Shown here in pieces: positions 5-47,226 of a stretch of DNA of 64,000 nt. Location of the stretch: sequence record PP301342.1; one strand, 5' to 3'. The notes beneath the pieces were generated by a model that was given only the letters and a program-made list of their open reading frames with translations, did not search any database and was not told the DNA's origin. The stretch is from Escherichia phage UE-M3. Both the position numbers and the translations under genes were made by a program. Numbering within the stretch: the first letter of the stretch is position 1; every line of letters starts with the position of its first letter.

Positions 5-2359
5 ATGAACGAAATGTTCTCACAAGGTGGTAAAGGCTCCACTGGTATTCTTACCAACAAACAAGCCATTGCCCGTAAGTTTGGTGTTAAGCAGAATGAG
101 GTTGTTTACTTTGCTGTAGGTGTAGACTTAGGGGAATACAAGGTCATTTATGATAAGACTACCCAGCGAGCTTACTCATTACCTGCAGACCTTGGTTCAG
201 GGGTTACTGCTGTAAGCCTTAATACTGCCGGTGTGTTAGTTCACTCTACTGGTAATGTTGACCTGGGTGCACTAGCTGTTTCACGAGGAGAGTTTATAAC
301 AGTCCCTGGGTCCTTCTCTTTGGGTTATGAGATTAAAGTAAAGAATGAATGTCTTGAATACCAGGGTGGGTTGTATCGATGGGATGGCGCACTGCCAAAG
401 GTTGTAGATGCTGGGTCTGTTCCTGATATTGGTACAGGAAAGTGGCTGAGCGTCGGTGATGCAGCCCTGCGCAGCCAGATTTCAGACCCGGATGGTGCGT
501 CCAGTTACCCTGAATTGCAGATGGCAAGATGGCGTGATGAGGGTGATGTTCGAGGCTGGGGTGCTAAAGGGGATGGTGTAACAGATAGTACGGAGAATAT
601 AGCTGCTTCACTAAATTCTCAAAAAGCTGTCGTAGCATCAGACGGTGTATTCTCTAGTTCTGGTATTAATAGTAATTACTGTAACTTAGACGGTAGAGGC
701 AGTGGTGTACTAAGTCACCGTTCAAGTACAGGTAACTACTTAGTATTTAACAATCTACGCTCAGGTCGCTTAAGTAATATTACGGTAGAAAGTAATAAGG
801 CGACCGATACCACTCAAGGGCAGCAGGTATCTCTTGCTGGTGGCAGTGATGTTACTATAAGTGATGTTAATTTCTCAAACGTTAAGGGCGCTGGTTTCAG
901 TTTAATCACATACCCTAATGATGCACCCTCTGATGGGCTTATGATTAAAGGCATTCGAGGTAGCTACTCCGGCTATGCTACTAATAAGGCGGCTGGATGC
1001 ATACATGCTGATTCCTCGGTTAACTCCCTCATAAATAACGTCATTGCTAAGAACTACCCTCAGTTCGGGGCTGTAGAACTGAAAGGTACAGCCAGTTATA
1101 ACATAGTCAGCAATGTTATAGGGGCAGACTGCCAGCATGTAACTTACAACGGTACAGAAGGGTCAATAGCTCCCTCTAACAACCTTATCAATGGGGTAGT
1201 GGCTAATAATCCTAAATATGCAGCGGTTGTTGCAGGCAAAGGTAGTACCAACTTAATCTCAGATGTGCTTGTAGATTTCTCAATCTCTGACGCTAGTCAG
1301 GCTCACGGTGTTACAGTAGAAGGCTCTGATAACGTAATAAGCAATGTGCTTATGTCAGGATGTGATGGTACTAACTCTTTAGGGCAAGCTCAAACTGCTA
1401 CAATTGCGCGCTTTATAGATACAGCTAATAACAACTATGCGTCTGTATTTCCTAGCTACAGTGCTACAGGTGTTATTACTTTCGAATCAGGTTCTACCCG
1501 TAACTTCGTAGAGGTAAAGCATCCGGGAAGGAGAAACGACCTTCTCAGTGCTACTGGTACTATTGAAGGTGCAGTTACTATTGACGGCACTAGTAATAGC
1601 AACGTAGTGCACGCACCTGCCTTAGGACAGTACATAGGTAGTATGTCAGGTCGGTTCGAATGGCGGATTAAGTCCATGTCACTTCCGTCAGGCGTTCTTA
1701 CCTCGGCTGATAAATACAGAATGCTTGGGGATGGTGCTGTGTCATTAGCTGTAGGCGGGGGTACTTCTTCTCAAGTTCGCCTATTTACTTCTGATGGTAC
1801 TTCTCGGAAAGTATCACTCACCAACGGTAACGTGCGTCTTCCTACCAGTAGCACAGGTTATTTGCAGTTAGGTTCTGATGCAATGACCCCAGATAGTACT
1901 AATACATACGCATTAGGTTCCGCAAGTAGAGCATGGTCTGGCGGTTTTACTCAATCAGCATTCACTGTTGTCTCAGATGCTAGGGATAAAACAGAGCCTC
2001 TTAATATCTCAGATGCTTTACTGGATGCTTGGTCTGAAGTTGACTTTGTGCAGTTTCAGTACTTGGACAGGATTGAGGAGAAGGGTGCAGACTCAGCCAG
2101 ATGGCACTTTGGTATCATCGCTCAGCGAGCTAAGGAGGCTTTCGAACGTCACGGCATAGATGCACATCGCTATGGCTTCCTGTGCTTCGACAGTTGGGAT
2201 GATGTATATGAGGAAGATGCCAATGGCTCTCGTAAACTGATTACACCAGCAGGTTCCCGCTACGGTATTCGTTACGAGGAAGTACTGATATTAGAAGCTG
2301 CGTTGATGCGGCGTACTATTAAGCGTATGCAGGAAGCATTAGCTGTTATGTCTAAGTGA
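5..2359 (+). CDS. Tail fibre/tailspike, probably 5-prime truncated at window edge; C-terminal intramolecular chaperone (peptidase S74-like) domain from ~1973
   Basis: 784-aa ORF; repetitive beta-helix-like Gly/Asn/Ser/Thr-rich core; C-terminal SDARDK...WHFGIIAQRAKEAF motif typical of self-cleaving chaperone domains of endosialidase/L-shaped tail fibres; open frame continues to position 2. Confidence 0.7.
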   Translation: MNEMFSQGGKGSTGILTNKQAIARKFGVKQNEVVYFAVGVDLGEYKVIYDKTTQRAYSLPADLGSGVTAVSLNTAGVLVHSTGNVDLGALAVSRGEFITVPGSFSLGYEIKVKNECLEYQGGLYRWDGALPKVVDAGSVPDIGTGKWLSVGDAALRSQISDPDGASSYPELQMARWRDEGDVRGWGAKGDGVTDSTENIAASLNSQKAVVASDGVFSSSGINSNYCNLDGRGSGVLSHRSSTGNYLVFNNLRSGRLSNITVESNKATDTTQGQQVSLAGGSDVTISDVNFSNVKGAGFSLITYPNDAPSDGLMIKGIRGSYSGYATNKAAGCIHADSSVNSLINNVIAKNYPQFGAVELKGTASYNIVSNVIGADCQHVTYNGTEGSIAPSNNLINGVVANNPKYAAVVAGKGSTNLISDVLVDFSISDASQAHGVTVEGSDNVISNVLMSGCDGTNSLGQAQTATIARFIDTANNNYASVFPSYSATGVITFESGSTRNFVEVKHPGRRNDLLSATGTIEGAVTIDGTSNSNVVHAPALGQYIGSMSGRFEWRIKSMSLPSGVLTSADKYRMLGDGAVSLAVGGGTSSQVRLFTSDGTSRKVSLTNGNVRLPTSSTGYLQLGSDAMTPDSTNTYALGSASRAWSGGFTQSAFTVVSDARDKTEPLNISDALLDAWSEVDFVQFQYLDRIEEKGADSARWHFGIIAQRAKEAFERHGIDAHRYGFLCFDSWDDVYEEDANGSRKLITPAGSRYGIRYEEVLILEAALMRRTIKRMQEALAVMSK

Positions 2360-2437
2360 GTAATACTGGTACGGTTAGATCAGTAGAGTTGGTTAACAGT
2401 AGCCTACGTACTACCAGGCTATTACTTATCTAGGTAT

Positions 2438-2468
2438 AAAACCCCGCTCAGGCGGGGTTTGTTTTTAT
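2438..2468. terminator. Bidirectional rho-independent terminator between convergent genes
   Basis: ccccgc-tcag-gcgggg stem-loop flanked by A-run and followed by tttgttttta. Confidence 0.6.
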
Positions 2469-2484
2469 CTATTAATAATATTTC

Positions 2485-3111
2485 TTATATAGAGTTTACT
2501 GTTTGCATTGCCCTAATTGATACTGCTGTTAGGGTAATTACTTGTCCTGAGATATTAAACATACCTAACTGAATACCGTCTACCATGAAAGGGTCAGTTG
2601 AACCAAGTGTGTAAGTAGCCAGTACGTTATCTCTGTTAGCAATGTCTGTACCCTGTACTTTAACACTAGCATCTGAACCTACTATCGTAATTCCATTGGT
2701 TCGTCTTGTTTGTGTTCTCCATTCCCTTGCTGTACCTGCACCACCTGCAATAATTCCTGATATACGAACACTGAACATTACCTGGGTATTCCTGGTTCTA
2801 ATGGGGAACTTAAGATTTCCTTCTTCAATTGTTAGTGCTGCTGTACCTCCAGGTGATTTAGTTATCCCTGGTAATGAAAAGTAATTGAACCAGGATTGGT
2901 CATTTACTGCCTGGCTCCCGGTCCATGTATACAAGTCCAGAAGAAATGTGTCTTCTAACTCTGTTGGTGGGAAAGGTAGTAGTTCTGGGGGGATCTCTGA
3001 GATGTTATTAGCAGAAACTATTCGTTCCCCATAACTTCCCACGACCAACAATCCCCCCTTCATTTTGCACACAACATCCCTACCACTTTGGAAAATATCT
3101 TTAATAGACAT
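2485..3111 (-). CDS. Hypothetical beta-rich protein, opposite orientation to surrounding late genes (possible tail/receptor-binding accessory)
   Basis: ORF track 2485..3138 starts at GTG; ATG at 3111 has GAGGT Shine-Dalgarno 5 nt upstream; no recognisable motif. Confidence 0.5.
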   Translation of the reverse strand: MSIKDIFQSGRDVVCKMKGGLLVVGSYGERIVSANNISEIPPELLPFPPTELEDTFLLDLYTWTGSQAVNDQSWFNYFSLPGITKSPGGTAALTIEEGNLKFPIRTRNTQVMFSVRISGIIAGGAGTAREWRTQTRRTNGITIVGSDASVKVQGTDIANRDNVLATYTLGSTDPFMVDGIQLGMFNISGQVITLTAVSIRAMQTVNSI

Positions 3112-3235
3112 AGTTACCTCGCAGTTGATACCAGACACTATGTCTGGATGTATCCCATCATACTAAGTATTATCTAAGAGTCATCTTATGATACGACCCT
3201 ATTGGGGTTCTTAACTTTACAACTACGGTAATATT

Positions 3236-3565
3236 ATGAATGAATCGGGCGAACTGCTTCTAGTCAGACTGGAGGAACGATTGAAGACTCTGTTTGAGAA
3301 TCAGACGAGAGACAGACAGGACCGTGAGAAACTGGAGGAAACTCTGGGAGAATTACGGGATTCAATCAATGACATAGGCAATAGACTAAAAAATGTGGAG
3401 GATAGCTTAGCTAAGAATGAACCTACTATTGAAGAGTTCATCACCATTAAGCATAAAGTTGTTGGTGCTGGAATTTTTGGTAAGTGGGTATGGGCTGGAG
3501 CAGGTGCAATTATTGGTGTATTGGCTGCTGCAAGACGGGAGATATTCGCATGGTTCGCAGGCTAA
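3236..3565 (+). CDS. Coiled-coil protein with C-terminal transmembrane segment (lysis-associated? antiholin/regulator candidate)
   Basis: 109 aa; charged helical N-terminus, C-terminal GAGIFGKWVWAGAGAIIGVLAAA hydrophobic segment; directly upstream of holin/endolysin. Confidence 0.4.
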   Translation: MNESGELLLVRLEERLKTLFENQTRDRQDREKLEETLGELRDSINDIGNRLKNVEDSLAKNEPTIEEFITIKHKVVGAGIFGKWVWAGAGAIIGVLAAARREIFAWFAG

Positions 3566-3810
3566 AAAGAAAAGTAGAGTTAGTACCTAACTGGAAAAGG
3601 TGTTGGAAGTGGGCATCCATTCAGATTAGTACACTTGGTTTAGTTCTATTTTCCGCTATAGATATTATCCAACCAATGGTGACAGGATTACCTCGTCACA
3701 TCTTGGAAGATATTCCCCATGGTTCCAATATTGCAATCGCACTGTTTGCCTTAAACATCATAGGCAGATTAATACGATTCCGACCAAAGGAAGATTCACA
3801 TGAAAGCTAA
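3550..3810 (+). CDS. Holin candidate (two predicted TM helices)
   Basis: ATG at 3550 in frame of ORF 3484..3810; hydrophobic segments ISTLGLVLFSAIDII and IAIALFALNIIGRLI; overlaps endolysin start. Confidence 0.45.
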   Translation: MVRRLKRKVELVPNWKRCWKWASIQISTLGLVLFSAIDIIQPMVTGLPRHILEDIPHGSNIAIALFALNIIGRLIRFRPKEDSHES

Positions 3811-4435
3811 ACAGAAACTTGCTGCAAAAGGTGGTGCAGTGGGAGGGGTTATCGCTGCTATTCTGGGGGCAGTGTTCTATATGGAAGGAGGTTATGTAAA
3901 CAATCCTCGTGACCCAGGTGGGGAAACTAATCATGGTATTACCCAATCAGTAGCTAAGACTCATAAAGAAGTTCTGGCTACTGAGTATGGTTGGGATGGT
4001 TCTATGAAGGGTTTATCTAAAGAGATGGCTGCTGAGATATACATTGATGACTATGTACTTAAACCTAACTTCGTAGCCTTCGCTGATATATCTCCTGCTG
4101 TAACGCATAAGCTAGTAGATGCTGGTGTTAATACTGGTGTAACCCGTCCTGCTAAGTGGTTGCAGATGTCTCTTAATGAAATGTCACGTAATGGCAAAGA
4201 CTACCCTAAAATACAGGTTGATGGTAAAGTCGGTACAAGTACTGTTAATGCATATAAAGCATTACAGAAAAAACGGGGCAAAGTTGCAGCATGTCAGGTA
4301 ATGATTAAGCTGCTTGATGCTAAACAACTGAACCACTATACCTCATTAAACATGCCAGACTTTACGTATGGTTGGGTAGCTAACCGAATAGGCAATGTGC
4401 CACTGGAGGCATGTAATGAAGATGCTAATCTCTAA
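3800..4435 (+). CDS. Endolysin, GH108-type N-acetylmuramidase, with Gly/Ala-rich weakly hydrophobic N-terminus (possible SAR signal)
   Basis: GGYVNNPRDPGGETNHGIT motif characteristic of GH108; AAGGAAG Shine-Dalgarno upstream of ATG 3800; size as recalled for N4 gp61 (208 aa). Confidence 0.8.
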   Translation: MKAKQKLAAKGGAVGGVIAAILGAVFYMEGGYVNNPRDPGGETNHGITQSVAKTHKEVLATEYGWDGSMKGLSKEMAAEIYIDDYVLKPNFVAFADISPAVTHKLVDAGVNTGVTRPAKWLQMSLNEMSRNGKDYPKIQVDGKVGTSTVNAYKALQKKRGKVAACQVMIKLLDAKQLNHYTSLNMPDFTYGWVANRIGNVPLEACNEDANL

Positions 4436-4922
4436 AGGTTGGCCTTATCTTCTGGTGGTGGTCCTTGGGGCCACCATTTACTTTTGGGGCAATTCCAATG
4501 GGCAGTCTACTGTTCAAAAGAAATGGGATGCCCAAAAGGTCGAAGACCAAAAGGCAACGCAAAAATTACAGGACAAATACAATGCTCTCCAAAGAAACCA
4601 TAGTTATGAAGTCGGGTTACTCACTTCCCGGTTGCAGACGGCTGAGAGTAATTACGCAAGCGAGCTTGCTCGCGTTAGCAGTGATTACGACAGCCGGATG
4701 CAACAGTCTGAAAGACGAGCATCGGTATATAAACGTCAAGCCGAAGCCGGAACCCTTGAGTGCAGAAGTCTTGCAAGCCATGCAGCCAGACTCGACAATA
4801 GTCTTGAAGAAGGCAGACGTTTGGTTGAAGAACTCCGGGCAACTGTTAGACTCCGTGACAGCCAACTAATTGAGTTGGGTAAACAGATTCAGGCTGACCG
4901 TAAACTTTTTGAACAGGAATAA
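4416..4922 (+). CDS. i-spanin (Rz-like): N-terminal TM anchor then coiled-coil periplasmic domain
   Basis: ATG 4416 with GGAGG 6 nt upstream; [19 protein letters not shown]; Q/E/R-rich helical remainder; position immediately after endolysin. Confidence 0.6.
4606..4869 (+). CDS. o-spanin (Rz1-like) lipoprotein embedded in +1 frame inside the i-spanin gene
   Basis: Frame +1 ORF wholly inside 4416..4922; signal-like [32 protein letters not shown] with lipobox-like TAGC then Pro-rich mature part; alternative start 4582. Confidence 0.5.
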   Translation: MKSGYSLPGCRRLRVITQASLLALAVITTAGCNSLKDEHRYINVKPKPEPLSAEVLQAMQPDSTIVLKKADVWLKNSGQLLDSVTAN

Positions 4923-4924
4923 CT

Positions 4925-7195
4925 ATGGAACACCAAGACACTTTTAAGCCTTTACCAGACCCGGCTCAATCAGAGAAGTTAACGGACTGGAAGAAGGAAC
5001 CAAGTATCCAATTACTGAAGGGTGATTTGGAATCTGCTAAACCTGCTCACGATGCAATCATGGCACAGATTCGTGAGTGGAATGATTTAATGGAAGTAAA
5101 GGGTAAGGCTAAACCCCCAAAGGTTAAGGGACGCTCGCAAGTCCAGCCTAGACTGGTTCGCCGTCAGGCAGAGTGGCGTTATGCTCCATTGTCTGAACCA
5201 TTCCTCTCGTCTAACAAACTATTTAAGGTAACTCCGGTTACTTTTGAAGATGAGTTAGCTGCACGCCAGAATGAGCTAGTTCTTAACTACCAATTCCGTA
5301 CTCAGCTTAATAAAGTAAAACTGGTAGATGATTACGTGCATAGTGTCGTAGATGACGGTACTGGTATTGCTCGTATTGGTTGGGAACGTAAGACAGTTAA
5401 GATTAAAACAGAAACACCAGTCTTCCAGTTGTACCCAATTGAGAACCAGGAACAAGCAGATATTCTTCAGCAGGCTTTGCAGCTTCAGGCAGAGAATCCT
5501 CGTGAGTATGATGAAACGATGCCAGAAGATATTAAGGAAGCTGTTAACTACTTCAATGAAACTGGAGAAGCTACTTATGCAATTCAGACAGGGGTCACTG
5601 AAGTAGAAGTAGAAAAAGCACTGGTTAACAGACCTACCGTTGAAATGCTTAATCCTAATAACGTAGTTATTGACCCAAGCTGTAATGGTGATTTGGACAA
5701 GGCTCTTTATGCAGTCATCTCATTTGAGACTTGTAAAGCAGACCTCATGAAAAACAAGGACCGTTACCACAACCTGGATAAGATTGACTGGGAAAGTTCC
5801 AGTCCTATGACTGACCCAGACCATGAAAGTAAAACTCCAGGTGACTTCCAGTTTAAGGATGCACTTCGCAAGAAAGTAATTGCTTATGAGTACTGGGGAT
5901 TCTACGACATTAACGATGATGGTTCGCTGGAACCAATTGTTGCTACCTGGATTGGTTCTACTCTTATTCGTATGGAGAAGAACCCATTCCCAGATGGTAA
6001 GTTACCATTGGTAGTTGTTCCTTATATGCCTCGTAAACGTGAACTCTATGGTGAAGCTGATGCTGAATTGCTAGGAGATAACCAAGCAATTCTTGGTGCA
6101 ACCATGCGTGGGATGATTGACCTGTTGGGCCGAAGTGCAAATGGTCAACGTGGTTATCCTAAAGGGATGTTAGATACCCTGAACCGTCGTCGATACGATG
6201 ATGGACAAGACTACGAATATAACCCAATGCAGGGCAATCCTAGTCAGGCCATTATGGAACACAAGTTCCCTGAGTTACCCCAGTCGGCAATAGTAATGAC
6301 TCAGATGCAAAACCAGGAAGCAGAAGCACTAACGGGTGTTAAAGCATTCTCGGGTGGTGTAACTGGTGAAGCTTACGGAGATGTAGCTGCTGGTATTCGT
6401 GGTGTACTAGATGCAGCATCCAAACGTGAGATGGCAATCCTTCGTCGATTAGCTAAGGGTATGGCAGACATTGGTACTAAGATTTGTGCAATGAATGCTG
6501 TGTTCTTATCTGAGAAAGAAGTAGTACGTATTACTAACGAGCAGTACGTAGAGATTAACCGTGAAGACCTTAAAGGTAATTTCGACATTGAAGTTGATAT
6601 TAATACTGCTGAGATTGATAACCAGAAATCCCAGGACTTGAGCTTCATGGTTCAAACGTTAGGTAATACGGTTGACCAGACTATTACGTTATCTCTTGTA
6701 GCTAAGATTGCAGAACTTAAACGTATGCCAGACCTTGCTCATGAGTTACGTACATGGCAACCACAACCAGACCCTATGGAAGAACAGCTTAAGCAATTGG
6801 CAATTCAGAAAGCACAGCTTGAGAACGAAGAGCTGCAAAGTAAGATTGCACTCAATATGGCTAAGGCTAAAGAGGCTGCTTCTAGTGGTGACCTTAAAGA
6901 TCTGGATTATCTGGAACAGGAATCTGGTACTAAACATGCTCGTGACATGGAAAAACAAAAAGCACAATCCCAAGGAAACCAAAACCTTCAGATAACTAAG
7001 GCGTTGACAACACCTACTAAAGAAGGTGAAACTACCCCCAACATATCTGCTGCTGTTGGATATAACGCTTTGACTAACGGGAACTCTATACCAGAACGTG
7101 ACTTAGCTGCACAACAAGACCCAGCTTATTCACTTAGTTCCCAATTCTATGACCCTAGCCAAGACCCAGCATCGGCTCTTGGCATGAACTTGTAA
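4925..7195 (+). CDS. Portal protein
   Basis: 756 aa, AGGA Shine-Dalgarno; size and position (upstream of capsid gene) match N4 gp59-like portal as recalled (~760 aa). Confidence 0.75.
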
Positions 7196-28658: not shown

Positions 28659-28732
28659 TGTCCACTACTGGATTTGAACCAGTGACTTTCCGATTATTAG
28701 TCGGTTGCTTTCCCCGTCTAAGCTAAGCGGAC
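28659..28732 (-). tRNA. tRNA, canonical cloverleaf; anticodon loop CUAAUAA (anticodon AAU, isotype tentative Ile)
   Basis: Minus strand folds with acceptor GTCCGCT/AGTGGAC, D-arm GCTT/AAGC, anticodon stem ACCGA/TCGGA, T-arm ACTGG-TTCAAAT-CCAGT; CCA not encoded. Confidence 0.6.
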
Positions 28733-28738
28733 ATAATA

Positions 28739-28814
28739 TGGTTACCCGGACAGGATTCGAACCTGCGTCCTAGTTGGTTTACTAGTGGGGCTTTACCACT
28801 AAGCCTACCGGGTA
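28739..28814 (-). tRNA. tRNA-like gene with encoded CCA but non-canonical anticodon loop (6- or 8-nt)
   Basis: Acceptor TACCCGG/CCGGGTA, D-arm GGCT-TAGTGGTAA-AGCC, T-arm GCAGG-TTCGAAT-CCTGT, 3-prime ACCA; anticodon region CTAGT-AAACCA-ACTAG cannot form a 7-nt loop. Confidence 0.55.
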
Positions 28815-29115
28815 TTAATAGGTGAGTCATGCCAGACTCTAACTGGCTCCTTCTTCGCAATCCTTACATACCCCTACATAATTATTGCGTTAAGCTTTTT
28901 TGTTTAAGTTTAAGTGAAGGCGTTCTTGCTGACTCATAATTGGGTTGGGCGTTTGACGAATGACTAGTTCGTTACTACCCGTTTGCCATAAGTACCTGGC
29001 GACTTTGGTTTGAGGTGGGAGTCCGAGTCCTGTACAGCCTTACCGTTCACACATTGGCAGCGTATCTAGAGTTGCACTTCCGGCAACTGGATTTAACTGT
29101 TACACCTCAAATAGG

Positions 29116-29215
29116 CAGTGGGGGATGGAATCGAACCATCAGTATTAAGTCTTATTCGTGCACCAAGCACGCTAGTAGATTACTCTACCGGAGGGAATCG
29201 AACCCTATCTACTTC
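29116..29215 (-). other. Two adjacent tRNA-like T-arm motifs with no canonical cloverleaf resolved by eye
   Basis: Minus strand GATGG-TTCGATT-CCATC and TAGGG-TTCGATT-CCCTC plus D-loop-like GGTAGAG; acceptor pairing not found at canonical distance. Confidence 0.3.
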
Positions 29216-29322
29216 ACCAGACCCACCATAATTCTTCCAATTTAGAGTAGCATTGTCACGGTGGGTGCTTTAAATGCCGGGAAACATTTAAATATACAAT
29301 GCTACTTTGAATTGGTTATCAG

Positions 29323-29436
29323 TGAAGGATTCGAACCTCCGGTTGGAGTCTATAGCTTACCGCAGCAGCCCTCCAATCTAGCGGTGTCACACTTAGTCCA
29401 AACTTGAACATGTCAAGCCATCTCGTGCAACTGATA
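29323..29436 (-). other. tRNA-like element with encoded CCA, unusually long (~114 nt)
   Basis: T-arm GGAGG-TTCGAAT-CCTTC, 3-prime ACTGATA-A-CCA; only complementary 5-prime strand TATCAGT lies 110 nt away; internal TTGGAG/CTCCAA stem. Confidence 0.35.
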
Positions 29437-29438
29437 AT

Positions 29439-29504
29439 TGGTTCCGGCGTCTGGACTCGAACCAGAACACTCATGCCGTGCACGACACTAGTACCTACAC
29501 CGGA
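29439..29504 (-). other. tRNA-like element with encoded CCA, unusually short or mis-delimited
   Basis: T-arm TCTGG-TTCGAGT-CCAGA, acceptor TCCGGTG/CGCCGGA, CCA encoded; body too short for a canonical tRNA. Confidence 0.3.
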
Positions 29505-29571
29505 ATTAATTGCCAGGGATTCCACCTGGCTCCATCTGTTTTTATAGTCACTCAGATATCGTCTGGACTGT

Positions 29572-29649
29572 AGGCATGGGTGGGAATCGAACCCACAAAC
29601 CATTCAGCACTGTAGCCTCACGCTCTACCTATTTGAGCTATCACATACC
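29572..29649 (-). other. tRNA-like element (T-arm and D-arm-like motifs, anticodon arm not canonical)
   Basis: GTGGG-TTCGATT-CCCAC T-arm, AGCTCAAATAGGTAGAGC D-arm-like, acceptor GGTATGT/CCATGCC with one mismatch. Confidence 0.35.
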
Positions 29650-30329
29650 ATTGATTAACTCCCCGTTTCTAATACATGGACGGGGACACTCCACGGTCGT
29701 TTGATAATCAGGACGACTCACTCCTGACTGACGCTTGGCTTATTAGGCTGCCATCAGAACAACATCATCGTTTGCATTTATGTTATTGGTTCGTTTCTAA
29801 AAAACCGCATAATCGCTTACGAAAACTATCAAAGAGTACACTAGCTCTGGGCCACGCTTGTGGACATCGGCCTACCTTCCACAGCTAATCAACTAATGCA
29901 CTCACTGATAGCCCATAATAGGGGGGAGGGGACGAATCCTCCCTTTATACCCTATATTGCATGTAAGATCTAACAGTTCGATGTTGTAGGTAGCTAGGCT
30001 ATCCGACATTTAACCCAGCCCATATAGGGGCTTATGTGATTAGAATGCTCAACATTGAGCGGTTAGTTTGATAAGGGATCTGAAGCCTTATCCTAAAGAT
30101 ACTAACCTTTGGGATATAGCCTAAGATTCAGAAATGGCCCCTATAGGGAGAGGCCATTGATTAACCCGAATGTTGCTTTACATTTGCTGTGATAACCAAT
30201 TCTTAAAATAGTCTGTCTGACGGATGGGGGTCCACCCCTAGCGTCAGTGCCATACGGCAAAGATTAAGTTAAGAAAGGTTATGATAGGAGTTCCTATCTC
30301 AAAGGATTCTAACAGAACCCTTCACGATA

Positions 30330-42593: not shown

Positions 42594-44654
42594 TTACTTA
42601 ACTGCTTTAACCAGCTTGGTAGCTAATTTAGCTTCTTCTTCAGTCAGACCCATTGCAGTGAATGACTTCTTAGCATGACGTTTATAGTCTTGCAGAGCAT
42701 GGCCTTTCTGATAGTCAGAATATGACGTATCGTTCAGGATGCTACGCAGATTATCAACGTGTTTACCAGAAGGAGCTACTTTAGAAGCAGCAGCAGAACG
42801 TGTAGGTTTAACTGTCTTATCCTGCTTAACAGCTTTAGGTTTACCAATAGGCTTAATTGTATAGGTAGCACGTACATCAGCAATCTTAGCTACCACGTCA
42901 CTACCTACATCAAATGCAGCCCAAGGCTTACGAGCTTTGGAACGCAGTTCTACCAGAAGGTCAGCAGCAGCTAACTTATCTTCTGGTGTTGTTGCATTAA
43001 GGAACTCTTTAACCAGTTCCTGGATTTGTTCTTTCACAGTAGGAGCCTTCTTAATAACGGGTTTAAGGTCAGTAGCCTTCACTGGTTCAGCAGCTACAGC
43101 TTCATTCAGTGACTCTTCCATGTCCAGTGCTTCTTTGCTAGCAACTGTACGGAATTGTTCTACAGAACCAGATGTGAGATTGGTGTATTTGAGGTTAGTA
43201 CCACGATGTCCACCAACCATAATAAGTGTGGTAGGTGAACTATGGTTCCCAACGATGGCATCATTAAGTAGTTTCTTACCTACTTCAGTTTTAGACAAAT
43301 AGATACCACTGTTAACGTTATTACGTTCCTCTTCCGGCAGTTCAGCAATAATGTGATACGCAGATACACGCATCTTATTAGTGCTGTACTGAGGAACAGC
43401 AAATACATCTTCTGGTGCTACTTTACCAAGGATAGTTACGTTACCACCGAAGCTACGAATATAGCTCATGGATGCTACATGCAGACCGTTAGAACAGTCC
43501 TGACGACGGTCAGGATCTACCAGGTCTTCCCGTACCTGCACTTTACAGCCTACCCACTGTTTGATGTTACCTGAGTGACAGTCAACGAATACACGTTTAC
43601 CATCTTCTTTCCCTTTATACTGAAGGCGTTTAAGGAACAGGATTGAACCATCATCAGCGATAGGCAATTCAGCAGTTTCCATGAACTTCATCAGGTCTTC
43701 TACTGAGTGCAGACGGTCTTTAATAACCGGAGCCAGACGCTCAAGGAACTTAGTGAAGCCCTTGTAGTCTTTCAACTTGGCAGACTGACGTAAGTGACGT
43801 TGCAGGTTCTCAACTCCAGGGATAACCCCATCGTTGGTAACAGCAACAACCACTTCATCTTCCTTCACATCAGTGTGAAAGTTAGCGTTATCAGTACTAA
43901 TAGCACCTAATGCAGCTAATTTCTCGGATGCAGCAGCCAGCTTATCCTGGTTCGTAGTTTTAGCTACTTCAATGTAAGGTGGTGGGGTATGTTTACGGCT
44001 GGTAAATACAATATGTACACCTTTGATATGCTTGGCTTGTTTAGCAAACTCACCCATTTCATCATCGGATACTGCACGAACTGCAACAGGCCATTCCTGT
44101 CTGAGCATGGTGTTGGTTTGTTCATACCCCCAACCCATTACGTCGTTAATAAAACGAACCAGTGCAGGATAGTTATGGTCCTTATCCCAGCCAGTAATCC
44201 ACATCAGATTGTCACGTCTGTCGTAGCAACCATCTGATACTGTTACTTCTGGTTCATTAGCTTGTACAGCCAGGAATGTATCCATAGCTTTAGATACTAA
44301 TGTCTTGGTGGGATTGCCTAGCTTAATATCAGAAACGGCTTGGGTAGGTTGAACATCTGTACCATCCTGGAAGAACTCTTTGAGTTTAGCTTTAGCTACC
44401 TTGAAGAAACGGACGAATCCATTAGTGTTCTTCTCTGCTTCCAGATACTCATTACGCAGTGATACTTCTGGTGCAATGTTTACTTCTATCAGGTCTTTGG
44501 TAATTCCCAAGCCTTTGGTTTGTGCTTCAGATACGATACGAGCAACCCGTGGGTCGCTCTGTGGATATACAATTGTGGAGCCATCAGGCTTCCACAATGT
44601 TAAGTTTCGACTGTCAACTGCCAGTGCGATGATAGAAATCAGTTCGATTTTCAT
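42594..44654 (-). CDS. rIIB: rIIB-like protein
   Basis: 686 aa immediately downstream of rIIA-like gene; assignment by synteny and size only. Confidence 0.45.
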   Translation of the reverse strand: MKIELISIIALAVDSRNLTLWKPDGSTIVYPQSDPRVARIVSEAQTKGLGITKDLIEVNIAPEVSLRNEYLEAEKNTNGFVRFFKVAKAKLKEFFQDGTDVQPTQAVSDIKLGNPTKTLVSKAMDTFLAVQANEPEVTVSDGCYDRRDNLMWITGWDKDHNYPALVRFINDVMGWGYEQTNTMLRQEWPVAVRAVSDDEMGEFAKQAKHIKGVHIVFTSRKHTPPPYIEVAKTTNQDKLAAASEKLAALGAISTDNANFHTDVKEDEVVVAVTNDGVIPGVENLQRHLRQSAKLKDYKGFTKFLERLAPVIKDRLHSVEDLMKFMETAELPIADDGSILFLKRLQYKGKEDGKRVFVDCHSGNIKQWVGCKVQVREDLVDPDRRQDCSNGLHVASMSYIRSFGGNVTILGKVAPEDVFAVPQYSTNKMRVSAYHIIAELPEEERNNVNSGIYLSKTEVGKKLLNDAIVGNHSSPTTLIMVGGHRGTNLKYTNLTSGSVEQFRTVASKEALDMEESLNEAVAAEPVKATDLKPVIKKAPTVKEQIQELVKEFLNATTPEDKLAAADLLVELRSKARKPWAAFDVGSDVVAKIADVRATYTIKPIGKPKAVKQDKTVKPTRSAAASKVAPSGKHVDNLRSILNDTSYSDYQKGHALQDYKRHAKKSFTAMGLTEEEAKLATKLVKAVK

Positions 44655-44658
44655 CAGA

Positions 44659-47226
44659 TTAGTTACCTTTCAGTTTATTTAGACGATTACGGTAGAGGGA
44701 CTTAAACCCAGGAATATCCTCTGGATTTTTCTTGAGGTGTTTAACTAAACTCCCCAAGTCCAGACTCTGTAGTATGTCACCAGCACTCCAGCTATAGCTG
44801 AATAACCCCTTGTACTGATTAAGTATTTCAAAGTACTTATGATTACGCGGATTAACCATCATTGTATATGGCTCTAAGTCATCAACTGACTTAATACAAC
44901 CCATTTCAACAAGTTTTTCTTTGTTGTTATGTGGTCGATTCCGTAGAAAGTCATATGCCCATTCATACTCTGGTTTAAAAATCAGATTCTGTAATGGTTT
45001 GAATGTTAGACCAAGAATATCGAGGATTTCCCAGTATTCCCTGTCATCTAATCCTACATATTCCAGAATACCAATACGGTGTTCAGTAACATATTTCTTG
45101 AAGCCTTTGCTGGTAATAACTGGCATCAGCTCCATAAAACGAACGTCATCAATGTGAATAGCACCACGTCGTTTAGCTTTGTTAGCTTCAATTTGATTGC
45201 GACAGACAACAGTCTCTGCTTTCATCTCGTCAGATAACTCATACCATTTCCACATGGTTCCAATCCGAGCAGTTACAGGACTACCAGAACTAACCTGATT
45301 GGCTAGTACGTAGTACTTAGGCTGTTCCACTTCAACGAAACCGTACTTCTCATGGAAGCTTGGGTCAGTAAAATCCTTGTCAATGTACGGCTTAGAATCC
45401 CAATCCCCACTTTTATTTCGTACAGGAGTAGTACCGAGAACTGCATTCAACGAAATCAGAGCATTAGTTTTACCCCCTGCTTTGGTTTTATTGGCAGCTA
45501 TCGTCTTAGCTCGTTTCTCAGCAGCTATCTTAGCTTGTTCTCTGCGGTAGTTAGTTGGTTTGTCCCACTCATTATATTGAGTGAGGTCAATTACCCGATA
45601 ACCCATAGCAGTGAACTTAGCTACAGCTTCTTCTGCTGCACCCTTTTTAGGACTAACGACGTGAACAAAAGCTGTACGCTCCAGGTCACCTCGGTTGTAC
45701 TCAGGGAAGTATGAGAAAGAGTCTGCACAGTCAGATAAACGTCGAGTAACTACAACGTTCTTGGTAGTGAATATACCAATACTCTGGTGGGAGTTATGGT
45801 ACATCTTAAAGTAGTCAGTAAGTTTGCCTTTTATCAGGTCTACAAAGTTACCCTGGTTCATTATGTAACCAGACCATTTAATGCCAGTAGCTTTTAAATC
45901 AGCAAGCTGAGGTAAGTGCAGATGACGATATACTAATTCCTGGAATGAGGAATATGTATTTGCTTCACGAGTATCCTTAAGGGCACGCATAGCCTTACCA
46001 TACAACTTCTTAAGACCTGCATATTCGGGACGAGCTAGTAATGCTTTGTTAGATAAGTTACGCCAGTGCTTGATGTGATGCTTACGTTGCTTAGCCCATA
46101 AACTAGAGGACATATAACTTTGAACAATTGGGTCTGTAACAGCAAGTAGGAAAGATGGATACTCCCAAAAGCGAGTAGAGGATTTAGAGGCGTATTCTTC
46201 AACCTGCTTAATAGCTTCAGGAATTTTAGCCCTAATCTCTTTCTCCATACGGTCTACTAAATCTACACACAGAGTAGTAATACCATCGTCAGTTAACTTC
46301 TGGTTAGACAGTGTTTCTCGACTAGGAGCAATAGCTAGAGTATCAGGTGCAGCCTGAACCACCAGATTAGAAGCACCAATGATATTCATAAAGTTGAGGA
46401 TAAGACCTACAGCCTCTTCACTAGCTGGGCTGGATACAATTGGGTACATTACGTTACCGTAACGAACGAATATGTTACTGTTACCCATATAGCCTTGATA
46501 CCATCTATCAGACATATCGTATGAACCAGGTTCAAATGACATTCCTAGTGTATTCAGTAGAGTGTAGTCACCTTGCTGAATACTATTACCTTCTTCTGTT
46601 TTAACGAGTTTAGGGATACTAAGTTCAGCTTTAATCTCACCGTTAAATACTATTGATGTGATGTAATGTACAAAGGTATTTAAATCATGCTTGCCTAACT
46701 GGAATTTAACTTCCAGCCCAGATTCCTCAGTAGGAATATTAGTAACAATAGGAACAATGCCTGGTTTACCGTCATTCTCAATCGCAGCTTTAGCTACGTT
46801 ATATACCGACATCTTTCCCTGGTTCCATGAAGTAACCTGGAAGCTATCTGTATAAGCGAACGGGGATTTACATCCCAGACCAAAACCACCAGTAACACTA
46901 CTGTTGGCTTTCTTAGTAGATGCACCATAGACACCATAAATGGAACCAATGAGTTCATCGGGGATGCCATTACCAAAGTCACGGAAGGTAATAAAGTTGT
47001 CTGTATCAATAGTGATACGAATAGGGGTATCAGTCTTACCTGCTTCAATATGAGCATCCCAACTGTTACAGATAGTCTCACGGACTACTGCCAGAGTAGG
47101 ATTGTTATATAAGGAAGTACTTAATACATGGAAGAATGCCGGGTCATCAGAGATGCCAAAGGCAATTGTTTCTTTGCCACCCAGTGTCGCTGAGGTAGCT
47201 ACTTCATTGGTATCTGCAACTAACAT
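44659..47226 (-). CDS. rIIA: rIIA-like protein with N-terminal GHKL-type ATPase fold
   Basis: 855 aa; ICNSWDAH and GGFGLGCKSPFAY motifs of histidine-kinase-like ATPase domain. Confidence 0.6.
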   Translation of the reverse strand: MLVADTNEVATSATLGGKETIAFGISDDPAFFHVLSTSLYNNPTLAVVRETICNSWDAHIEAGKTDTPIRITIDTDNFITFRDFGNGIPDELIGSIYGVYGASTKKANSSVTGGFGLGCKSPFAYTDSFQVTSWNQGKMSVYNVAKAAIENDGKPGIVPIVTNIPTEESGLEVKFQLGKHDLNTFVHYITSIVFNGEIKAELSIPKLVKTEEGNSIQQGDYTLLNTLGMSFEPGSYDMSDRWYQGYMGNSNIFVRYGNVMYPIVSSPASEEAVGLILNFMNIIGASNLVVQAAPDTLAIAPSRETLSNQKLTDDGITTLCVDLVDRMEKEIRAKIPEAIKQVEEYASKSSTRFWEYPSFLLAVTDPIVQSYMSSSLWAKQRKHHIKHWRNLSNKALLARPEYAGLKKLYGKAMRALKDTREANTYSSFQELVYRHLHLPQLADLKATGIKWSGYIMNQGNFVDLIKGKLTDYFKMYHNSHQSIGIFTTKNVVVTRRLSDCADSFSYFPEYNRGDLERTAFVHVVSPKKGAAEEAVAKFTAMGYRVIDLTQYNEWDKPTNYRREQAKIAAEKRAKTIAANKTKAGGKTNALISLNAVLGTTPVRNKSGDWDSKPYIDKDFTDPSFHEKYGFVEVEQPKYYVLANQVSSGSPVTARIGTMWKWYELSDEMKAETVVCRNQIEANKAKRRGAIHIDDVRFMELMPVITSKGFKKYVTEHRIGILEYVGLDDREYWEILDILGLTFKPLQNLIFKPEYEWAYDFLRNRPHNNKEKLVEMGCIKSVDDLEPYTMMVNPRNHKYFEILNQYKGLFSYSWSAGDILQSLDLGSLVKHLKKNPEDIPGFKSLYRNRLNKLKGN

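Follow-up and report, generated by a model that had tools for sequence, protein, structure and literature searches.

The five tightly overlapping genes on the plus strand at 3236–4922 of Escherichia phage UE-M3 (PP301342.1; the window is the whole stretch of 64,000 nucleotides that was analysed) raise the question of whether they make up a lysis cassette and, if so, which of the two small membrane proteins encoded upstream of the endolysin is the holin. The features are:

3236..3565, plus strand: predicted gp63-like pinholin, 109 aa (orthology to N4 gp63)
3550..3810, plus strand: gp62-like membrane protein with two transmembrane domains (TMDs), DUF7940, 86 aa (orthology to N4 gp62)
3800..4435, plus strand: predicted SAR endolysin, 211 aa, GH108 N-acetylmuramidase plus PG_binding_3 (Pfam, orthology)
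4416..4922, plus strand: i-spanin (Rz-like), 168 aa, N-terminal TMD and helical periplasmic domain (PHROG 6197)
4606..4869, plus strand: o-spanin (Rz1-like) lipoprotein in the +1 frame of the i-spanin (lipobox, orthology to N4 gp60a)

Gene content and conservation of the cassette

The window showed 0 mismatches to Escherichia phage UE-S5a (PP175015.1), an N4-like Gamaleyavirus, over the 49,924 bases compared. The products of the five genes are orthologues of N4 gp63, gp62, gp61, gp60 and gp60a, with conserved order and 69, 67, 71, 57 and 60% identity, respectively, and the genes overlap by 16 nt (gp63-like and gp62-like), 11 nt (gp62-like and endolysin) and 20 nt (endolysin 3' end and i-spanin). 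The N4 cassette has the same five genes, order, overlaps and embedded o-spanin at 57–71% identity (bioRxiv 10.1101/2025.11.12.688109), and the Receiver segment and TMD of gp63, the SAR segment of gp61 and the EGGY and GGETNHG motifs are common to both phages. The upstream neighbours differ, being tailspike genes and a divergent ORF in the window and gp64 in N4. Genes resembling gp63, gp61, gp60 and gp60a were found in this order in all 26 fetched loci, with the gp63-like gene always at the head of the cassette, upstream of the endolysin. With the exception of Meara, the gp62-like gene lies between these two; it was lost to tblastn in three distant loci of the 26 (Ea9-2, HN04 and Meara), and in Ea9-2 and HN04 a DUF7940 ORF is present at the gp62 position despite the tblastn miss.

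The first-pass annotation had proposed a lysis cassette at 3236–4922, which is borne out by the orthology of all five genes to the experimentally dissected cassette of N4, and each sequence feature that it described was found where it had been placed. The locus is very probably a lysis cassette of Gamaleyavirus composed of an N4-type pinholin, a SAR endolysin and a two-component spanin. The gene structures, motifs, orthology and conservation were established here, and from the N4 orthologues we infer the functions in the UE-M3 phage. This kind of cassette is already known, and there is no departure from the known system. In a promoter scan of positions 2300–5100, no sigma-70-like site was found on the plus strand ahead of 3236; the total number of sites was lower than in shuffled sequence and the scan is uninformative, since N4 late promoters are atypical.

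The two membrane proteins upstream of the endolysin

The product of 3236–3565 shares 69% identity over 107 aa with N4 gp63 and is near-identical to it from residue 63 onward, including the conserved 'Receiver' segment PTIEEFITIKHK (aa 63–74) and the stretch PTIEEFITIKHKVVGAG.FGKWVWAGAG. This C-terminal half is near-invariant across Schitoviridae, T64 and T70 included, which correspond to T65 and T71 of N4 gp63 and lie inside the identical PTIEEFITIKHK. A single, weakly hydrophobic, Gly/Ala-rich TMD was found near the C-terminus (about aa 75–98), and residues 33–60, to which the heptad repeat is confined, form a perfect repeat with L, I or V at 8 of 8 a/d positions, in agreement with the coiled-coil protein with a C-terminal TM segment seen in the first pass. 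The single-sequence AF2 model, used for helix content only, was all-helical with low confidence (mean pLDDT 53). The flanking charges (N-flank net 0, C-flank +1, N-terminal domain net −5) leave the predicted topology ambiguous, and the N4 authors likewise report conflicting topology predictions for gp63 (bioRxiv 10.1101/2025.11.12.688109). No family in Pfam or NCBIfam matched the protein, it belongs to PHROG 5211 ('unknown function'), and the 120 matches listed in a large protein search were close relatives only, without a Pfam domain.

The product of 3550–3810 shares 67% identity with N4 gp62 and has a strongly basic N-terminus and two TMDs (aa 22–40 and 59–77). It matches Pfam DUF7940 (PF25612; E = 3e-14, 53.6 bits against a gathering cut-off of 27 bits), a family also present at the matching position in N4, Ea9-2, Paxi, phiAxp-3 and HN04, and falls into PHROG 1356 ('holin'). 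Its ATG at 3550, preceded by a GGGAGA Shine-Dalgarno sequence, was preferred over a longer form (GTG 3484 or ATG 3490; 108 or 106 aa), which was rejected. The upstream extension of 22 codons is a by-product of conserved gp63 codons, the long-form starts and the preceding TAA being forced by the codons for G-K-W-V-W; it is rich in Cys, Trp and His, lacks a Shine-Dalgarno sequence and is interrupted by a stop in 2 of 10 relatives.

GenBank, PHROG and the first-pass annotation assign the role of true holin or pinholin to 3550–3810 and that of antiholin or accessory timing regulator to 3236–3565. This reading draws on the class-II-holin-like topology of the gp62-like protein (two TMDs, basic N-terminus), its PHROG label, the position of its gene immediately upstream of the endolysin and, in N4, the triggerable lethality of gp62 and its slow release of SAR and soluble endolysins (bioRxiv 10.1101/2025.11.12.688109). 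However, N4 gp62 complements neither S105 nor S21 at a normal pace and displays hole-forming activity that is slow and late only, the gene is non-essential, its deletion leaves lysis unimpaired, and no gp62 mutant was recovered among more than 60 rapid lysers in a rapid-lysis screen (bioRxiv 10.1101/2025.11.12.688109). N4 gp63, on the other hand, behaves as a pinholin, complementing S21 and failing to complement S105; it is lethal upon triggering with CCCP, is conditionally essential and yields the rapid-lysis alleles T65I and T71A (bioRxiv 10.1101/2025.11.12.688109). The comparative data point the same way, as Pseudomonas phage Meara has no gp62-like ORF, its gp63-like gene abutting the SAR endolysin gene, and as conservation in the TMD and Receiver region of gp63-like proteins far exceeds that of the gp62-like proteins. 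The assignment of the holin role to 3550–3810 is therefore unlikely, and 3236–3565 most likely encodes the pinholin rather than an accessory protein, which reverses the roles given earlier: the holin candidate at 3550–3810 is, by homology, probably an accessory regulator of lysis whose holin-like activity comes late, and the suggestion that 3236–3565 encodes an antiholin does not hold, whereas the alternative suggestion of a lysis-timing regulator was right in spirit, as gp63 sets the time of lysis. Some of the gp62 and gp63 deletion phenotypes in the N4 work, a preprint, were not complementable (bioRxiv 10.1101/2025.11.12.688109).

GenBank places the start of the gp63-like gene at an in-frame TTG (3281) with a GGAGG Shine-Dalgarno sequence, giving a product of 94 aa; the ATG at 3236 is supported because the ARLEER motif upstream of the TTG is conserved in distant relatives. 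The alternative start of N4 gp63, Met17, is TTG in the UE-M3 phage. A dual start, with ATG 3236 and TTG 3281 producing a holin/antiholin pair of the lambda S107/S105 type, was considered and rejected, since the internal start lacks conservation: G7C and an IMG/VR contig (3300024308) do not have it, and in KP8-like phages it falls on a different codon without a Shine-Dalgarno sequence. The GGAGG before TTG 3281 is part of the codons of the conserved L-E-E-R. Nothing supports a dual start as a feature of the family; in the window phage itself one may still be in use.

Unlike the C-terminal half, the first 62 residues of the gp63-like protein have diverged strongly from N4. Compared with close relatives, this N-terminal half is saturated at synonymous sites, against near-identity in the remainder of the cassette; it moves together with the neighbouring tailspike (host-range) module, and in an unrelated Phapecoctavirus it occurs as a truncated scar beside a tailspike fragment. 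Positive selection on the N-terminal domain was rejected (synonymous sites saturated, pN < pS), and the pattern fits an old recombining module rather than diversifying selection. That this coiled-coil half serves as a swappable sensor module of the pinholin is a rather improbable reading.

The linkage to the tailspike genes, which the gp63-like gene adjoins and with whose module its N-terminal half co-varies, could also be taken to support the view that the product of 3236–3565 is a structural or receptor-binding protein of the virion. Public records call it 'tail needle protein gp26' or 'tail length tape-measure protein', and in the UE-S5a paper it was analysed as a receptor-binding protein. 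It was detected by LC-MS/MS in UE-S5a phage preparations, but so were all annotated UE-S5a products (UE-S5a paper), among them the holin, endolysin, spanin, primase, SSB and other non-structural proteins, and such detection is therefore no proof of virion membership. No Pfam, PHROG or NCBIfam match to a tail-needle or tape-measure family was found for the protein, which has a conserved TMD and whose N4 orthologue has holin activity. A virion role is thus extremely unlikely, and the tail-needle and tape-measure labels of 3281–3565 are propagated annotations.

The predicted SAR endolysin and the embedded spanins

The endolysin matches GH108 (PF05838; E = 7e-20, 71.8 bits against a cut-off of 21.2 bits) and PG_binding_3 (E = 9e-8, 32.6 bits against 24.6) and carries GGETNHGIT at aa 40–48 (nt 3917–3943), in line with the GH108 endolysin reported earlier on the basis of this motif. 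It scored 57.7 bits against the NCBIfam equivalog NF040573 (holin-associated N-acetylmuramidase), below the curated cut-off of 240 bits; it is related to this equivalog and not a member of it, which leaves GH108 membership unaffected. The best PDB relative was Sen1395 (6v3z, E = 5e-27). TtsA and Sen1395 (PDB 6v3z, 6v40) share GH108, PG_binding_3 and the pattern EGGYVN.P.D.GG.T..GIT with the endolysin, but are bacterial proteins, and the phmmer alignment to 6v3z begins at residue 24 of the endolysin, with the Gly/Ala-rich N-terminal segment outside the aligned region.

This N-terminal segment, flagged as SAR-like in the first pass, is uncharged from G11 to M28 (aa 11–28, nt 3830–3883) and flanked by K10 and E29, the latter being the first residue of EGGY (aa 29–32), which directly follows it. 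Its best 19-residue window (aa 7–25) has a KD value of 1.79 and 58% G/A/S/T, like the SAR domains of P1 Lyz and R21. A basic stretch followed by a hydrophobic one would also fit an ordinary cleavable Sec signal peptide, or the segment could be a permanent anchor. Against this, no AXA-type cleavage site was found in the endolysin N-terminus, and the conserved EGGY begins one residue past the hydrophobic stretch, so that cleavage at the usual distance would be expected to remove it. The N4 orthologue gp61 (71% identity), whose first description is credited to Stojkovic and Rothman-Denes (2007, J Mol Biol 366:406), is membrane-associated, makes up for a defective endolysin behind a large-hole holin as well as behind a pinholin, leaks slowly when alone, and causes rapid lysis upon charge insertions in its SAR segment such as G12E (bioRxiv 10.1101/2025.11.12.688109); G12 corresponds to G15 of the window endolysin. 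A signal peptide or permanent anchor is thus very unlikely, and Sec export, membrane tethering and depolarisation-dependent release of the window endolysin are predicted from gp61.

The same logic is known from S21 and R21 of phage 21, in which small holes depolarise the membrane and free a tethered endolysin, although these have no sequence relationship to the window proteins. S21 has two TMDs, one of them being a SAR domain, in contrast to the single TMD of the gp63-like protein, which lies C-terminal to a helical domain of about 74 residues, and R21 is a T4-lysozyme-type (GH24) enzyme whereas the window endolysin belongs to GH108. N4 gp63 and gp61 complement S21 and R21 defects (bioRxiv 10.1101/2025.11.12.688109).

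The i-spanin was assigned to PHROG 6197 ('Rz-like spanin', E = 1.5e-77), shares 57% identity with N4 gp60 and has its TMD at aa 3–21. Its ATG at 4416 has a GGAGG Shine-Dalgarno sequence, unlike the start of the longest ORF (4395, 175 aa), which was rejected. The o-spanin ORF lies wholly inside the i-spanin gene, starting at ATG 4606 (alternatively ATG 4582) and ending with a stop at 4869. A regular expression identified the lipobox TAGC, on which the first-pass reading of the embedded frame had been made to depend, with the lipidated Cys (codon 4699–4701) following a 31-residue signal peptide; the mature protein is 56 aa, a length conserved between N4 and the window, has Asn (non-Asp) at +2 and shares 60% identity with N4 gp60a. 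This o-spanin is unannotated in PP175015.1 and annotated in G7C and ShWW44. An embedded lipoprotein with a mature length of 54–59 aa was recovered in 10 of the 11 Schitoviridae loci examined, from six host genera (Escherichia, Klebsiella-like, Achromobacter, Erwinia, Pseudomonas and Stenotrophomonas). Moreover, the excess third-codon variability of the i-spanin gene collapses to 0.048 in the overlap, compared with 0.147 and 0.133 in the flanks, which is a dual-coding signature beyond chance. The claim of an o-spanin embedded in the +1 frame of the i-spanin is thus confirmed.

The arrangement is like that of lambda Rz/Rz1, where the i-spanin gene likewise encloses the whole of the o-spanin gene in its +1 frame. 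As in Rz, an N-terminal TMD of the i-spanin is combined with a helical domain in the periplasm, and the o-spanin resembles Rz1 in being short, in containing Pro and in carrying at +2 a residue for outer-membrane sorting. The window spanin family (PHROG 6197, N4 type) is nonetheless different from that of lambda. Lambda Rz1 forms intermolecular disulfides; these are impossible in the same way in the mature window o-spanin, as its lipidated Cys is the sole Cys. N4 gp60 and gp60a complement lambda RzRz1 amber mutants (bioRxiv 10.1101/2025.11.12.688109), suggesting that the window spanin pair would disrupt the outer membrane.

A working model of lysis and its bearing on annotation

Judging from N4, in which the gp60–63 cassette takes about 25 min to lyse E. 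coli (bioRxiv 10.1101/2025.11.12.688109), the five proteins would be made late in infection from a single translationally coupled block. The GH108 muramidase would be exported by Sec and, through its weakly hydrophobic, Gly/Ala-rich N-terminus, would stay tethered and inactive in the inner membrane, with the EGGY motif right at the membrane face, while the gp63-like protein would build up in the inner membrane via its C-terminal Gly/Ala-rich TMD and, triggering at a set time, open small holes that collapse the membrane potential. Depolarisation would then free the SAR endolysin around the whole cell for degradation of the murein. The i-spanin in the inner membrane and the o-spanin, an outer-membrane lipoprotein, would have pre-formed a periplasm-spanning complex which, once the murein is gone, would fuse both membranes. 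The DUF7940 protein (3550–3810) would be accessory, its slow late holes modulating the timing or providing a back-up route. According to the N4 preprint, which cites earlier work, the Gamaleyavirus relative G7C does not show the lysis inhibition of N4 (bioRxiv 10.1101/2025.11.12.688109), and regulation may therefore differ from N4. On the improbable sensor-module reading, if the N-terminal domain of the gp63-like pinholin received the signal that times lysis, or were periplasmic, the timing of lysis would be adjusted along with the host range, and such coupling could explain why lysis inhibition occurs in N4 and not in G7C-type phages.

The locus adds little new biology, the exact sequence being already in GenBank and the functions of the family having been worked out in N4, and its practical value lies in annotation repair. 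The probable pinholin goes under the names 'tail needle protein', 'tape-measure protein', 'RIIB lysis inhibitor' or 'hypothetical' in PP175015.1 and in dozens of related phages, the label 'holin' sits on the accessory protein, and PP175015.1 has no entry for the embedded o-spanin. These labels would mislead the engineering of therapeutic UPEC phages and the mining of such genomes for lysis timing or endolysins.

Composition of the cassette and its relation to phage N4

Megablast with the cassette region matched 88 phage records; for 57 of these the match spanned 80% or more of the region. Window 3100-5000 was a 100% match to Escherichia phage UE-S5a (PP175015.1), and window 1-49924 corresponded to positions 9877-59800 of that record with 0 mismatches. 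This phage belongs to Gamaleyavirus (Schitoviridae, Enquatrovirinae) and is an N4-like podophage of the G7C type that infects uropathogenic E. coli. The first-pass annotation had described a lysis cassette at 3236-4922, and its sequence description was accurate: all five plus-strand genes and the described features were found, as follows (TMD, transmembrane domain; SAR, signal-anchor-release).

3236-3565, plus strand: gp63-like protein, 109 aa, with a heptad repeat and a Gly/Ala-rich TMD
3550-3810, plus strand: gp62-like protein, 86 aa, DUF7940, PHROG 1356 'holin', two TMDs
3800-4435, plus strand: endolysin, 211 aa, GH108 and PG_binding_3 domains, SAR segment
4416-4922, plus strand: i-spanin, 168 aa, PHROG 6197 'Rz-like spanin', N-terminal TMD
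4606-4869 (alternative ATG 4582), plus strand, +1 frame of the i-spanin: o-spanin, lipobox TAGC

The gene overlaps of 16, 11 and 20 nt point to translational coupling. All five products are orthologues of the N4 lysis proteins gp63 (69% identity), gp62 (67%), gp61 (71%), gp60 (57%) and the embedded gp60a (60%), and the gene order is the same as in N4; judged by sequence, the cassette belongs to the N4-type family. The five-gene order was kept across 26 loci, among them members of several Schitoviridae subfamilies; in this set tblastn missed the gp62-like gene in three distant loci, two of these carrying a DUF7940 ORF at that place. The arrangement is more than chance. The N4 cassette has been dissected experimentally; E. 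coli lysed about 25 min after its gp60-63 block was induced (Awuah et al., bioRxiv 10.1101/2025.11.12.688109). Neither the sequence, the cassette nor its mechanism is new.

Endolysin and embedded spanins

The endolysin matched GH108 (E 7e-20) and PG_binding_3 (E 9e-8) in Pfam, carries GGETNHGIT at residues 40-48, and has Sen1395 (PDB 6v3z, E 5e-27) as its closest solved structure. The segment G11-M28, bordered by K10 and E29, is uncharged (best 19-residue window, aa 7-25: KD hydropathy 1.79, 58% G/A/S/T). The Pfam match, this uncharged Gly/Ala-rich segment and the orthology to N4 gp61 bear out the earlier reading of a GH108 endolysin with a SAR-type N-terminus. As the EGGY motif (E29) begins one residue past the SAR segment, we infer that membrane embedding would hold the active-site region against the bilayer and that cleavage of the N-terminus by signal peptidase is implausible. 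N4 gp61 is a SAR endolysin that rescues endolysin defects behind lambda S105 and the phage 21 pinholin and causes slow leakage when expressed alone; its two rapid-lysis changes, one of them G12E, each add negative charge to the SAR segment (Awuah et al.). N4 G12 aligns with G15 of the window protein. By 2015 the literature already classed the N4 endolysin as a SAR N-acetylmuramidase. The score against the NCBIfam equivalog NF040573 was 57.7 bits, under the 240-bit cut-off, which means only that the endolysin is not that specific equivalog; all other defining features of the cassette that sequence can show were found, the activities themselves being predicted.

The i-spanin gene has a GGAGG Shine-Dalgarno before its start, and its product matched PHROG 6197 with an E value of 1.5e-77. 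Entirely within this gene lies the +1-frame ORF, with possible starts at ATG 4582 and ATG 4606 and its stop at 4869, whose lipobox TAGC (Cys codon at 4699) would leave a mature protein of 56 residues with Asn at +2. The embedded lipoprotein of relatives has a lipobox and a mature part of 54-59 residues, shares the core NVKP..PL...L.AMQP.ST.L..KAD.W..NS..LLDSV, and was recovered in phages whose hosts are Escherichia, Klebsiella-like, Achromobacter, Erwinia, Pseudomonas and Stenotrophomonas; Burkholderia phage HN04, with an o-spanin homologue by tblastn, was not included in this tally. In a set of 12 distinct close relatives, the excess variability at third codon positions of the i-spanin was 0.147 and 0.133 in the flanks outside the overlap and 0.048 over the mature o-spanin region, a drop expected where the position also serves as a constrained second codon position in another gene. 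With this conservation and dual-coding signature, the proposal of an o-spanin embedded in the +1 frame of the i-spanin was upheld. N4 gp60/gp60a fully complement lambda RzRz1 amber mutants (Awuah et al.); the window pair parallels lambda Rz/Rz1 functionally, without sequence relatedness.

Assignment of the probable pinholin and accessory roles

Residues 33-60 of the gp63-like protein form a perfect heptad repeat in which all a/d positions are L, I or V and core hydrophobics (L/I/V/M/F) are absent from the other positions; a single-sequence AF2 model was all-helical at low confidence (pLDDT 53). The single, weakly hydrophobic TMD, rich in Gly and Ala (about residues 75-98), has about balanced flanking charges, and the N-terminal domain is negative overall (net -5); for N4 gp63, topology predictions conflict (Awuah et al.). 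The stretch PTIEEFITIKHKVVGAGIFGKWVWAGAGAIIGVLAAARREIFAWFA, comprising the Receiver (the segment adjoining the TMD) and the TMD, differs from N4 by only three changes, all conservative, and the C-terminal half hardly varies from host to host (11 sequences share 19 invariant columns). N4 gp63 acts as the pinholin, complementing S21 but not S105; it is conditionally essential, its triggering by CCCP is irreversibly lethal, and its rapid-lysis alleles, including T65I and T71A, cluster in the Receiver beside the TMD (Awuah et al.); T65 and T71 align with T64 and T70 of the window protein.

The gp62-like protein has a strongly basic N-terminus and matched DUF7940 in Pfam (E 3e-14). N4 gp62 is dispensable, yielded no mutants among more than 60 rapid lysers screened, forms holes only slowly and late, and was termed a 'lysis regulator' (Awuah et al.). 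The first-pass annotation had made this two-TMD protein the holin candidate and 3236-3565 an extra, regulatory protein; these roles are most likely reversed, 3236-3565 being the pinholin and 3550-3810 the accessory. An independent comparative point for the reversal is Pseudomonas phage Meara (L024 2420-3345), in which the gp63-like gene is directly followed by a SAR GH108 endolysin gene and no gp62-like/DUF7940 ORF was found in any frame between or across the two. The reversal is also favoured because the C-terminal half of the gp63-like protein is so conserved whereas gp62-like proteins are hard to detect, falling below tblastn detection in three distant phages and being recognisable in two of these only via the Pfam profile. 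Meara carries a naturally 'minimal' cassette.

For the gp63-like gene, ATG 3236 is the supported start, since the (L)ARLEER motif upstream of the alternative TTG 3281 is kept in distant relatives. TTG 3281 is used by the GenBank UE-S5a record and about half of public gene calls (94-aa product), is preceded by a perfect GGAGG, and is the counterpart of the N4 alternative start Met17. However, G7C and others do not keep this start codon, and the GGAGG merely encodes the conserved L-E-E-R, so a dual-start holin/antiholin arrangement remains speculative. For the gp62-like gene, the supported start is ATG 3550 with GGGAGA. A Cys/Trp/His-rich 22-codon extension (3484-3549, from GTG 3484 or ATG 3490) was rejected: it lacks a Shine-Dalgarno, is interrupted in two of ten relatives, and arises from the G-K-W-V-W codons conserved in gp63, whose other-frame reading is TAA-(A/G)TG-GGT-ATG. 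In the window this suggests a frame artefact, not a conserved dual start; the equivalent N4 extension gives the 109-aa gp62 length of the preprint (Awuah et al.).

In the proposed mechanism, the gp63-like pinholin would build up in the inner membrane and then trigger, depolarisation would free the SAR-tethered GH108 muramidase, murein would be broken down, and the spanin complex would fuse inner and outer membranes, the DUF7940 protein possibly modulating timing or serving as back-up. The pinholin and SAR-endolysin system of phage 21 is a functional parallel with no sequence relatedness. Elsewhere in the window, large rIIA-like and rIIB-like genes (42594-47226, minus strand) are annotated 'lysis inhibitor', and GenBank annotates three tRNAs (Ile, 'OTHER' and Cys; 28659-29650, minus strand).

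Mosaicism, expression and annotation

A mosaic boundary lies within the gp63-like gene near nt 3421 (codon 62/63). Compared with G7C, N4 and three IMG/VR contigs, synonymous sites of codons 1-62 were saturated against all relatives (pS 0.77-0.96); codons 63-109 gave pS 0.21-0.54 and dN/dS 0.02-0.14. Protein identity to G7C was 96-99% for the endolysin and spanins and 71% for the gp63-like protein, so the N-terminal half of the latter appears to travel and recombine together with the adjoining tailspike module. Consistent with this, the tail genes of Phapecoctavirus vB_Ec-G1 (L027 4001-4749; PQ433349.1 65661-66409) include a truncated gp63-like ORF (87% identity over aa 1-83, then out-of-frame unrelated sequence, without the TMD), followed by a fragment of 102 aa that matches the window tailspike (5-2359) at its N-terminus; the two look like a recombination scar of tailspike-module exchange. 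Similar partial matches occur in SKML-39, ZCKP1 and AV101. Between the K5-lyase-type tailspike and the cassette lies a divergent 208-217-aa ORF (2485-3138, minus strand; PHROG 17779, 'gene 9' or 'G-9 protein'), whereas in N4 this position holds gp64 on the same strand; this ORF is separated from the convergent tailspike gene by a strong GC-rich hairpin with a T-run after it (2439-2460).

LC-MS/MS of UE-S5a preparations found the gp63-like product, as 'tail needle protein gp26', together with holin, endolysin, Rz-like spanin and many non-structural proteins (PMC11927229). These genes are therefore translated in UE-S5a; virion membership of the gp63-like protein does not follow. That study analysed it as a receptor-binding protein (PMC11927229). 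For the 3281-3565 product, 'tail needle protein gp26' and 'tail length tape-measure protein T' are widespread labels, and individual records give 'RIIB lysis inhibitor' or 'virion RNA polymerase'; PP175015.1 carries no annotation for the o-spanin (4606-4869). The value of these assignments lies in annotation repair: the probable pinholin is labelled as tail needle or tape measure, 'holin' stands on the likely accessory protein, and the predicted o-spanin is missing.
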